Shown here piece after piece: positions 51,173 through 51,904 of a stretch of 64,000 nucleotides of DNA. A model generated the notes under the pieces. It had not been told where the DNA came from. It was given only the letters and a program-made list of their open reading frames with translations, and did not search any database. The stretch's first letter is position 1; the number at the start of each line of letters is the position of its first letter. The DNA is from Candidatus Nomurabacteria bacterium. Lineage in GTDB: Bacteria; Patescibacteriota; Minisyncoccia; Phycocordibacterales; UBA9973. Where the stretch lies: positions 3,907 through 67,906 of the forward strand of contig JADLEY010000009.1 in NCBI GenBank assembly GCA_020845875.1, in the 5' to 3' direction. A program made the translations under genes and the position numbers.

Positions 51173-51904
51173 ATGAATGCGAAATGGCTTGAGCATCTTC
51201 TAGAATACCGCGTCTCTGAGCATCGTGTTGTGGCTCTGCAGACACTTCTGCGAGAAAAGATTGCACGGCAAGCCACTGCTGCACGTCGGTACAAGAAACA
51301 ATTTGTTCCGCCGAAAGTATTGCAGGAGACAAATGAAAAGAAATTACTTCTCATTGAAGCGCGCTATGCACGCATGTACTGGAGCGCATTTGCTCGAGCA
51401 CTTCCGAAGTGGTGCGCATGGAAGGGGAGGGTGCCGCACGGTACTGATGTTGCAAACAAATTGCTTGATATCGGGTATCATACACTCTCGCTTATTCTTC
51501 AAAAGAAGTGTGAAGCACTCAATATACCGACTGAGGTTGGACTCCTTCACAGAGCACAGTCGGCAAAAGCGCATCCGCTTGTCTATGATCTCATGGAACC
51601 ATTTCGAGTGCATGTAGTAGATGAAGTACTCATGACCTTTTTCCATATGAAAAAGCATCCGATTGTGCAAGTAGATCAGATAATAGTACAAGAATTTTTG
51701 CATGAGGTGTATGCGATACTACATCGGCAGTACTATCACCGTGAGCGCCGTGTTTGTATCAGTTTTTCTTATTGGATTGATCTTGTTTTGCTCGGACTTC
51801 GAGGAGCAGTATCTGGCCAGCGTAAGTTTAAGCCACTTTGGACACCACTGCGCCACGAAACTCGGTGTAATAGAAAACCTCCGACTACAATGTCGGAGGT
51901 CTAA
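51173..51904 (+). CDS. cas1: CRISPR-associated Cas1 integrase, catalytic alpha-helical domain only (N-terminal beta-sandwich domain absent)
   Basis: LLDIGYHTLSLIL…LHRAQSAKAHPLVYDLMEPFRVHVVDEVL is the canonical Cas1 core. Catalytic E(62)/H/D are present. An in-frame stop 4 codons upstream of the ATG precludes any N-terminal extension. Confidence 0.85.
   Translation: MNAKWLEHLLEYRVSEHRVVALQTLLREKIARQATAARRYKKQFVPPKVLQETNEKKLLLIEARYARMYWSAFARALPKWCAWKGRVPHGTDVANKLLDIGYHTLSLILQKKCEALNIPTEVGLLHRAQSAKAHPLVYDLMEPFRVHVVDEVLMTFFHMKKHPIVQVDQIIVQEFLHEVYAILHRQYYHRERRVCISFSYWIDLVLLGLRGAVSGQRKFKPLWTPLRHETRCNRKPPTTMSEV
51872..51899 (-). terminator. Minus-strand hairpin terminator (cctccgac-tacaat-gtcggagg + T-tract) at the array's leader-distal end, inside the cas1 3' coding region
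   Basis: Perfect 8-bp stem preceded on the + strand by gaaaa, which is ttttc on the minus strand. Confidence 0.5.

Follow-up and report, generated by a model that had tools for sequence, protein, structure and literature searches.

A half-size Cas1 without its N-terminal domain, conserved beside Cas12f-like effectors and changing arrays in CPR bacteria: a candidate miniature spacer integrase

This paper concerns a short cas1 gene and the small CRISPR module around it, on a stretch of 64,000 nucleotides (nt) from a Candidatus Nomurabacteria bacterium (GenBank assembly GCA_020845875.1, contig JADLEY010000009.1, positions 3,907 to 67,906 of the forward strand). The whole stretch is called the window here, and coordinates refer to it unless another locus is named. 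The gene, mini-cas1 (51173..51904, + strand), is an open reading frame (ORF) of 243 amino acids (aa). It encodes the alpha-helical catalytic domain of Cas1, followed by a C-terminal tail of about 20 aa. We consider it rather likely that this is a functional miniature Cas1, with the catalytic domain alone serving as the spacer integrase of a compact, Cas2-less, V-F-like module of bacteria of the candidate phyla radiation (CPR). Mini-Cas1 is probably also the smallest natural CRISPR spacer integrase.

By score and by active site, mini-Cas1 is a member of the Cas1 family that fails one defining feature, the N-terminal beta-sandwich domain. Pfam Cas_Cas1 (PF01867) matches at 78 bits with a cut-off of 22.3, where residues 24-160 correspond to profile positions 126-253 of 283. 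TIGR00287 gives 87.9 bits, above its cut-off of 71.7, and aligns its positions 116-327 of 327 with residues 25-221. For 27 out of 27 PADLOC Cas1 models, the match begins at model position 87 or later. A profile of the mini-Cas1 family similarly aligns with twenty solved Cas1 and casposase chains only from chain residues ~83-130 on. The AlphaFold2 model (predicted local distance difference test, pLDDT, 89.9; predicted TM-score, pTM, 0.86) has seven helices and one small hairpin, and the N-terminal beta domain is absent from it. Foldseek matches this model to the casposase 6opm and to the Cas1 structures 4n06, 7cr6 and 4xtk, with TM-scores of 0.7-0.8 when normalised to the query, versus 0.5-0.6 when normalised to the larger targets. 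A preliminary description of this DNA had called the protein a Cas1 reduced to its catalytic domain, and profiles, solved chains and model all agree with it.

There is no room for the missing domain upstream. A TAG at 51161-51163 is followed by GAT-ACG-AAT and then the ATG, so a stop sits four codons 5' of the start. The effector ORF upstream ends at 51124. Together these leave no frame for an N-terminal domain, and the earlier claim that the stop codon rules out a longer frame was correct. A tblastn search of the 64-kb window with full-length Cas1 and Cas2 proteins found no remnant of the domain, and neither a second cas1 nor a canonical cas2.

The catalytic residues are intact, as had also been stated for E62, the His and the Asp: E62, H126, D139 and E142 are unchanged across 18 aligned homologues. 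C195, R227, H228, R231 and C232 are likewise invariant. These five are specific to the family, and sit in the C-terminal tail past the end of the TIGR00287 profile.

The short form is widely kept. A first search, through 5.8 billion proteins, returned 19 homologues of 37-96% identity, nearly all 230-267 aa long, several of which bear a JGI annotation as Cas1. They share the N-terminus MNA(K/L)W(L/I). When a profile was run against 1.84 billion representative proteins, 31 matches reached E<=1e-30, every one of them at most 263 aa. Below this top tier comes a second tier of Cas1-like proteins of ~240-290 aa, and ordinary Cas1 proteins of 300-350 aa surface only at around E 1e-18 to 1e-23. In GTDB, taking one genome per species, the family is found in 16 loci. 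Fifteen are on metagenome-assembled genomes (MAGs) of Saccharibacteria, Paceibacterota, Adlerbacteria and Moraniibacteriota; the remaining one is a 3.3-kb contig binned as Bacteroidia. The short Cas1 is a conserved form in CPR bacteria, not a fresh truncation. Looking for the same truncation in related genomes, as had been suggested, finds it down to 37% identity and with the same N-terminus.

The second tier (alignment A4; 245-290 aa) likewise has no N-terminal domain. Its C-terminal PWxHxxxC motif and the RHETRC tail of the window family are related. At one locus (L029), a 264-aa second-tier Cas1 overlaps the 3' end of a 637-aa Cas12f (PDLC01689, E 3e-42), after which comes an array with a period of 67 nt. 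At another (L027), the short Cas1 is flanked by two arrays of period 69 nt. Array periods of 67-69 nt and the 637-aa Cas12f effector rule out that these are Cas1 proteins of types V-C or V-D. A Cas1 without the N-terminal domain is a broader feature of miniature type V systems. The literature searched describes no such Cas1, with the primary V-C and Cas14 papers outside its scope, so a prior description is possible. The 2025 classification update and a TnpB/Cas12 survey do not mention one.

Nearly all related loci have a CRISPR array beside mini-cas1, and some have a second array 5' of the effector gene. Repeats in these arrays are 37-40 nt long with a period of 69-74 nt, and there are 1-9 spacers of ~30-35 nt. 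The window array (51903..52154, - strand) holds one degenerate repeat at its Cas1-proximal end (51903-51941) and three 39-nt repeats (51974-52012, 52046-52084 and 52116-52154), all on the minus strand, with spacers of 32, 33 and 31 nt. Two orientations occur. Paceibacteria-type loci place the leader between cas1 and the array, with repeats that end in ...GCTAC. The window and Saccharibacteria have the degenerate repeat adjoining cas1, and there the minus-strand repeat ends in ...GGGTAC.

The degenerate repeat is distal to the leader, which together with the repeat sense in relatives indicates that the window array is transcribed on the minus strand. Two further features fit this direction. The promoter-like site TTGACG-17-TATCAT (52339..52367, - strand, so read from 52367 to 52339) faces the array and overlaps the first codons of uvrC, and is a candidate promoter for the precursor of the CRISPR RNA (pre-crRNA). 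At the other end, a hairpin within the 3' end of cas1 (51878..51899, - strand), followed by UUUUCU, would end the pre-crRNA. The pairing in this hairpin is preserved through compensatory changes in two related loci (L005 and L012).

Beside the newest repeat there is a conserved leader (52155..52245, - strand, with the leader as a whole running to about 52330). Its motifs GGTGGTTTT, CTTCATCT and GGCCnGGGTAC and its two hairpins are common to lineages with Cas1 proteins that are only ~41% identical. This sequence is likely the leader of the integration site. It is possibly also a compact trans-activating CRISPR RNA (tracrRNA). Ultracompact systems of the NanoCas type have a tracrRNA of ~50 nt with two stem-loops (bioRxiv 10.1101/2025.01.29.635576), which the window leader with its two hairpins resembles. 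The duplex energy of leader and repeat is -20.7 kcal/mol, compared to -18.7 +/- 3.3 for shuffled sequences, and this is not significant. The tracrRNA idea therefore draws on conservation and resemblance. A blastn-short search for an anti-repeat gave no match above 9 nt. Two leader segments, GUACCCCGGCC and AAAAACCACCU, are complementary to the 3' part of the repeat in the crRNA sense. Leader-side sequence is kept in the window, in L106 (~3390-3480) and in L012 (~5575-5660).

The arrays differ where mini-Cas1 does not. Five contigs from different samples have identical mini-Cas1 (P0014), flanks and leader, and wholly different spacer sets of one to three spacers each. In the space from the degenerate repeat to the leader, the five together hold at least 8 different spacers, each 30-32 nt long. 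Contigs of the window's own species share a 100% identical effector and carry three versions of the array. The window has spacers S1, S2 and S3, one contig (L111) has S1, Sx, S2 and S3, and two others (L113 and L114) have another first spacer, Sy. Different spacers next to an identical mini-Cas1 mean that the arrays turn over. The preliminary description had raised the prospect of array content that never varies between strains; it does vary, both among the P0014 contigs and within the window's species. When five spacers were compared by blastn-short with the window and every locus, the sole matches were the arrays themselves, which means no self-targeting. The repeat, as a degenerate 33-mer, had zero matches among JGI metagenome contigs.

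In 15 loci, a homologue of the window effector of 409-462 aa lies directly 5' of mini-cas1; at L001 the homologue is placed across the array from mini-cas1. The gap between the two genes has a typical layout. In the window, a terminator-like hairpin with a T-run (51129..51158, + strand) lies between effector gene and mini-cas1. Its stem (51129-51152) has 10 base pairs, of which 6 are G-C, around a 4-nt loop, and is followed by TTTTTT, which bears out the strong terminator reported earlier. The 48-nt intergenic region has a fold energy of -20.1 kcal/mol. In all 17 loci compared, the gap of 48-85 nt forms a G+C-rich hairpin followed by a T-run, at -15 to -36 kcal/mol, and the sequences of these hairpins are unrelated to one another. 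Between the hairpin and the cas1 start of these 17 loci there is usually a TGnTAnnAT-like -10 element, which lies within a few bases of the start. In the window, an extended -10-like element can be read as TGtTAGGAT (51158..51166, + strand), 6 nt 5' of the ATG. Going by these signals, mini-cas1 is probably a separate, weakly expressed transcription unit with a leaderless mRNA. The effector gene has a perfect sigma-70 consensus promoter on its 5' side, TTGACA-16-TATAAT (49750..49777, + strand).

The effector itself (49802..51124, + strand) is a Cas12f/TnpB-like protein of 440 aa. The PADLOC model Cas12_x1, which is a CAS-V-F effector model, matches it at E 7e-30, and matches its relatives at other loci at 1e-115 to 1e-149. 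This means the effector family is already represented in typing tools, and that the comparison with V-F and V-U loci proposed at the outset was apt. In NCBIfam, the effector matches the TnpB family at E 9e-22, below the cut-off. The NCBI name for the protein is 'transposase'. A structural model (pLDDT 77), built on a shallow alignment of six sequences, has its nearest folds in AsCas12f, OsCas12f and TnpB, and the best matches are the AsCas12f structures 8j12, 8j3r and 7wju.

In the alignment of the effector family, there is no CxxC zinc finger or TNB insert, and a clear RuvC-III motif was not found. The protein stops shortly past a conserved QNTG...G..V segment. The window effector keeps a candidate RuvC-I Asp (GVDLGA) and a candidate RuvC-II Glu (VGETT). 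The Paceibacteria-type group has Ala or Ser in place of the Asp, and several Saccharibacteria-type members have Lys or Met in place of the Glu. Judging by these substitutions, many of the systems may bind their targets without cutting them.

From all this, a mechanism can be proposed. The module would be ordered as promoter, 440-aa Cas12f-like effector, terminator, mini-cas1, array and conserved leader. The intrinsic terminator would insulate mini-cas1 from the strongly promoted effector gene, and its own extended -10 element would provide low-level expression from a leaderless mRNA. Spacers of ~30-33 nt would be inserted at the leader-proximal repeat, on the 52154/52155 side, and rapid loss of old spacers would hold arrays at 1-9 spacers. 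The N-terminal domain and the spacer ruler would be replaced by the invariant C-terminal Cys/His tail, by a higher-order Cas1 oligomer, by the effector, or by a host factor. Both the integrase activity of mini-Cas1 and its site at the leader-proximal repeat are things we infer.

Several observations weigh against a functional miniature integrase. In every solved Cas1 or casposase, the N-terminal domain provides dimerisation, so mini-Cas1 would need another way to hold two active sites ~30 bp apart. L012, on a Paceibacterota MAG, has a 60%-identical mini-cas1 (4743-5467 of that locus) with an in-frame stop and a frameshift, next to an array with one spacer. Across 7.9 kb, the window shares 99.6% identity with L005; the two show 29 differences, of which 25 fall in cas1, from 51346 on. 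There are zero differences in the effector gene, the Cas2-like gene discussed below and nth. The changes in cas1 are 9 nonsynonymous to 7 synonymous, for a rough ratio of the two rates (dN/dS) of ~0.4, which indicates only moderate constraint. Such clustering means that the 3' part of cas1 and the array behave like a cassette that can be exchanged, and would be explained by recombination of cassettes or by fast evolution at this spot. Some of the array differences may then stem from recombination of this cassette and not from fresh acquisition. The arrays are very short, and no protospacers were found in IMG/VR for four spacers (22-nt cores). Finally, contig data leave room for a Cas2 or a second Cas1 elsewhere in genomes of ~1 Mb. 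As a separate observation, the window at 51346-51941 and the loci L005, L113 and L114 form two haplotypes on a single background, one with the 243-aa allele and spacer S1, the other with a 242-aa allele and spacer Sy.

Some of these points could also be taken as signs of decay, which was one of two options in the preliminary description. On that reading, the gene would be a 5'-truncated remnant on its way to loss, beside fossil arrays. Some lineages do show decay of the module: besides the broken gene of L012, a CPR contig (L030, 7028-7363) retains a Cas1 fragment of just 111 aa, which follows uvrA, uvrC and ddl. Of all genes, cas1 also diverges most between two near-identical strains, which speaks for decay. 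Against this, dozens of lineages keep the length, the start and the catalytic residues, down to 37% identity, and the mini-Cas1 model is confident and compact. In addition, 17 loci share the terminator-plus-promoter layout, arrays vary among strains whose Cas1 is identical, and upstream no remnant of an N-terminal domain was found. Decay does happen in L012 and L030, but for the window gene and its family it is hardly credible. The other option, a genuinely minimal integrase, is the one that gains from the conserved short form, catalytic residues, N-terminus and terminator-promoter layout, and from spacers that differ between strains.

It is rather improbable that the catalytic domain has been co-opted for other work. 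Mini-Cas1 could be a DNase partnering an effector with a degenerate RuvC site, or act in DNA repair, with spacers arriving in trans or by recombination. The strict adjacency of cas1 to the effector gene would suit this, as would an effector family that has no zinc finger and in which many members have replaced the RuvC-I Asp or the RuvC-II Glu. The N-terminal domain that canonical integrase assembly needs is also missing. However, the window effector keeps both its candidate Asp and Glu, and the residues conserved in mini-Cas1 are exactly those of the Cas1 integrase active site. The arrays turn over while no other adaptation gene is nearby, and to our knowledge Cas1 is the only enzyme family that makes repeat-spacer units.

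A related idea keeps the integrase and couples it to the effector. The Cas12f-like protein might serve as bridge and ruler, holding two Cas1 sites ~30 bp apart and choosing prespacers flanked by a protospacer adjacent motif. In known V-F systems, effectors of the Cas12f family act as dimers. We regard this version as unlikely, though it is worth stating: if true, adaptation and interference would physically be one machine, with a total of ~680 aa.

The last candidate for a partner is the gene at 48828-49334, which encodes a 168-aa protein with a winged-helix N-terminus and a Cas2-like fold, called wHTH::Cas2-like here (wHTH being winged helix-turn-helix). The preliminary description had suggested that mini-Cas1 works with it. 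The two could form a complex of the Cas1-Cas2 type, with the wHTH replacing the lost N-terminal domain. What recommends this is the ferredoxin-type Cas2-like domain, and the position of the gene 1.8 kb 5' of cas1 in the window, L005 and L012. PaaX_M matches the protein at 7.5e-13, and TIGR01573 (cas2) reaches 26.9 bits with a cut-off of 24.5, across the first 39 profile positions only. CRISPR_Cas2 scores 23.6 bits, under its cut-off of 23.8. But the gene is confined to the clade of the window: none of 18 other loci has it near mini-cas1. The 135 ORFs that lie up to 4.5 kb from mini-cas1 at 18 loci matched 37 families, and there is no Cas family among the 25 of these listed; 47 small ORFs in the same range have no Cas2, PaaX_M or Cas4 domain. 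The wHTH::Cas2-like family conversely has at least 200 homologues in Patescibacteria, far above the size of the mini-Cas1 family. In four out of four sampled contexts (43-61% identity), the neighbours are housekeeping genes with zero cas genes among them. At L116, a homologue adjoins uvrC and the CRISPR module is absent. Such a widespread, stand-alone PaaX-like family means that the neighbour is probably not the partner of mini-Cas1, and the suggested cooperation is very unlikely. The data suggest a resident PaaX-like regulator, with the CRISPR module having landed beside its gene.

This gene is flanked by two copies of a 37-nt imperfect palindrome (ATATACTCA-N19-TGAGTATAT), at 48800-48836 and 49337-49373. 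One overlaps the start of the gene, and the other lies just past its stop. Such flanking palindromes are as expected of an autoregulated repressor and so speak against a role as partner; it is plausible that they are operators of this PaaX-like regulator.

The surroundings of the module hold further repeated sequence. An element of 37-59 nt is present in four direct copies, at 48410-48446, 48717-48753, 49696-49732 and 52333-52369. Its exact 15-nt core TATGATTCGTCAAGA has 4 matches in 64 kb, where 0.23 are expected. The copies bracket the wHTH::Cas2-like gene and the 2.6-kb CRISPR module, and the copy at 52333-52369 holds the true start of uvrC (ATG ATT CGT CAA, which is MIRQ). On the minus strand, each copy is promoter-like, resembling TTGACG-16/17-TATCAT. 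The only copy in L116, which has no CRISPR module, is at uvrC. The pattern suggests either insertions in series at the 5' end of uvrC, or duplication of a promoter. Bracketing direct repeats with an exact core also raise the possibility that the 2.6-kb module was itself inserted by Cas1, in the manner of a casposon.

One of the promoter-like copies (48751-48723) faces a stretch of ~260 nt (48453-48720, - strand) with no convincing ORF, which ends at a strong bidirectional terminator (48453-48485). This stretch could encode a small RNA. Two small minus-strand ORFs, at 48161-48397 (78 aa) and 49452-49685 (77 aa), each follow one copy of the repeated promoter-like element and do not belong to the conserved module. 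They were considered as split-off N-terminal domains and rejected, since they occur only in the same strain cluster and match no family. Well away from the CRISPR locus, a k-mer scan also picked up a short stretch (19381-19483) whose repeats lie 45-95 nt apart.

In current models of adaptation, Cas1 forms dimers through its N-terminal domain, and these are bridged by Cas2 or, in type V-C, form a tetramer that is limited to spacers of ~18 bp. Mini-Cas1 has neither the N-terminal domain nor Cas2, yet it is found beside arrays with repeats of normal size and with spacers that turn over. If mini-Cas1 proves active, an integrase that measures ~32 bp can be assembled from the catalytic domain, either by itself or together with a partner that has escaped recognition. 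This would define a minimal CRISPR integrase and bear on the evolution of Cas1 from casposases, and it would show how strongly reduced CPR genomes retain adaptive immunity. An integrase gene of ~0.7 kb would also be of use for molecular-recording tools, and the ultracompact effector for genome editing.

An integrase that consists of Cas1 only is not new. Wright et al. (2019, Mol Cell 73:727) reportedly described a Cas1-only 'mini-integrase' of type V-C. Type V-C Cas1 integrates DNA on its own in vitro, is thought to act as a tetramer, and prefers spacers of ~17-19 bp with a repeat of ~25 bp (PMC6977970, PMC8464041). What the V-C and V-D loci share with the mini-cas1 loci is that Cas1 is the sole adaptation gene of a type V locus, with no cas2, and that the hosts are largely uncultivated bacteria. 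The array dimensions differ: V-C has repeats of ~25 bp and spacers of ~17-19 bp, whereas the mini-cas1 loci have repeats of 37-40 nt and spacers of ~30-35 nt. With ~18 bp and 25 bp on one side and ~32 and ~39 nt on the other, another ruler must exist. The effectors differ as well, being Cas12c (~1200-1300 aa) or Cas12d in V-C and V-D, and a Cas12f-like protein of 410-460 aa here. The papers on V-C read for this comparison, from which the primary V-C paper is absent, do not state that V-C Cas1 lacks the N-terminal domain.

Canonical Cas1, as in E. coli I-E, E. faecalis II-A and Synechocystis (7cr6), shares with mini-Cas1 the catalytic fold, the Glu/His/Asp(Glu) site and the adjacency to an array. 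It has an N-terminal beta-sandwich of ~90-110 aa and a Cas2 partner, and mini-Cas1 has neither. In solved Cas1-Cas2 complexes, the N-terminal domain forms the Cas1 dimer and contacts Cas2. This role in dimer formation and Cas2 contact is also covered by PMC6977970. Unlike canonical Cas1, mini-Cas1 adds a C-terminal tail with an invariant RH..RC motif.

Casposases act as homo-oligomers without Cas2. The family 2 casposase of M. mazei (PDB 6opm) is among the best matches of mini-Cas1, in sequence as well as in fold. Casposases do keep the N-terminal domain and add a C-terminal helix-turn-helix, and casposons hold a polymerase and terminal inverted repeats. The mini-cas1 locus, in contrast, has no N-terminal domain, no polymerase and no terminal inverted repeats.

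The nearest known systems by effector are those of type V-F (Cas12f/Cas14). A miniature effector of the Cas12f family and small arrays are common to both, and a tracrRNA is likely. V-F1 and V-F2 loci have cas1, cas2 and cas4 all present, or have no adaptation genes. The adaptation-gene content of the 'greater Cas12f branch' (cas1, cas2, cas4 or none) is described in PMC10691335. The mini-cas1 module differs from V-F by its lone, half-size cas1, and by an effector without the zinc-finger/TNB insert.

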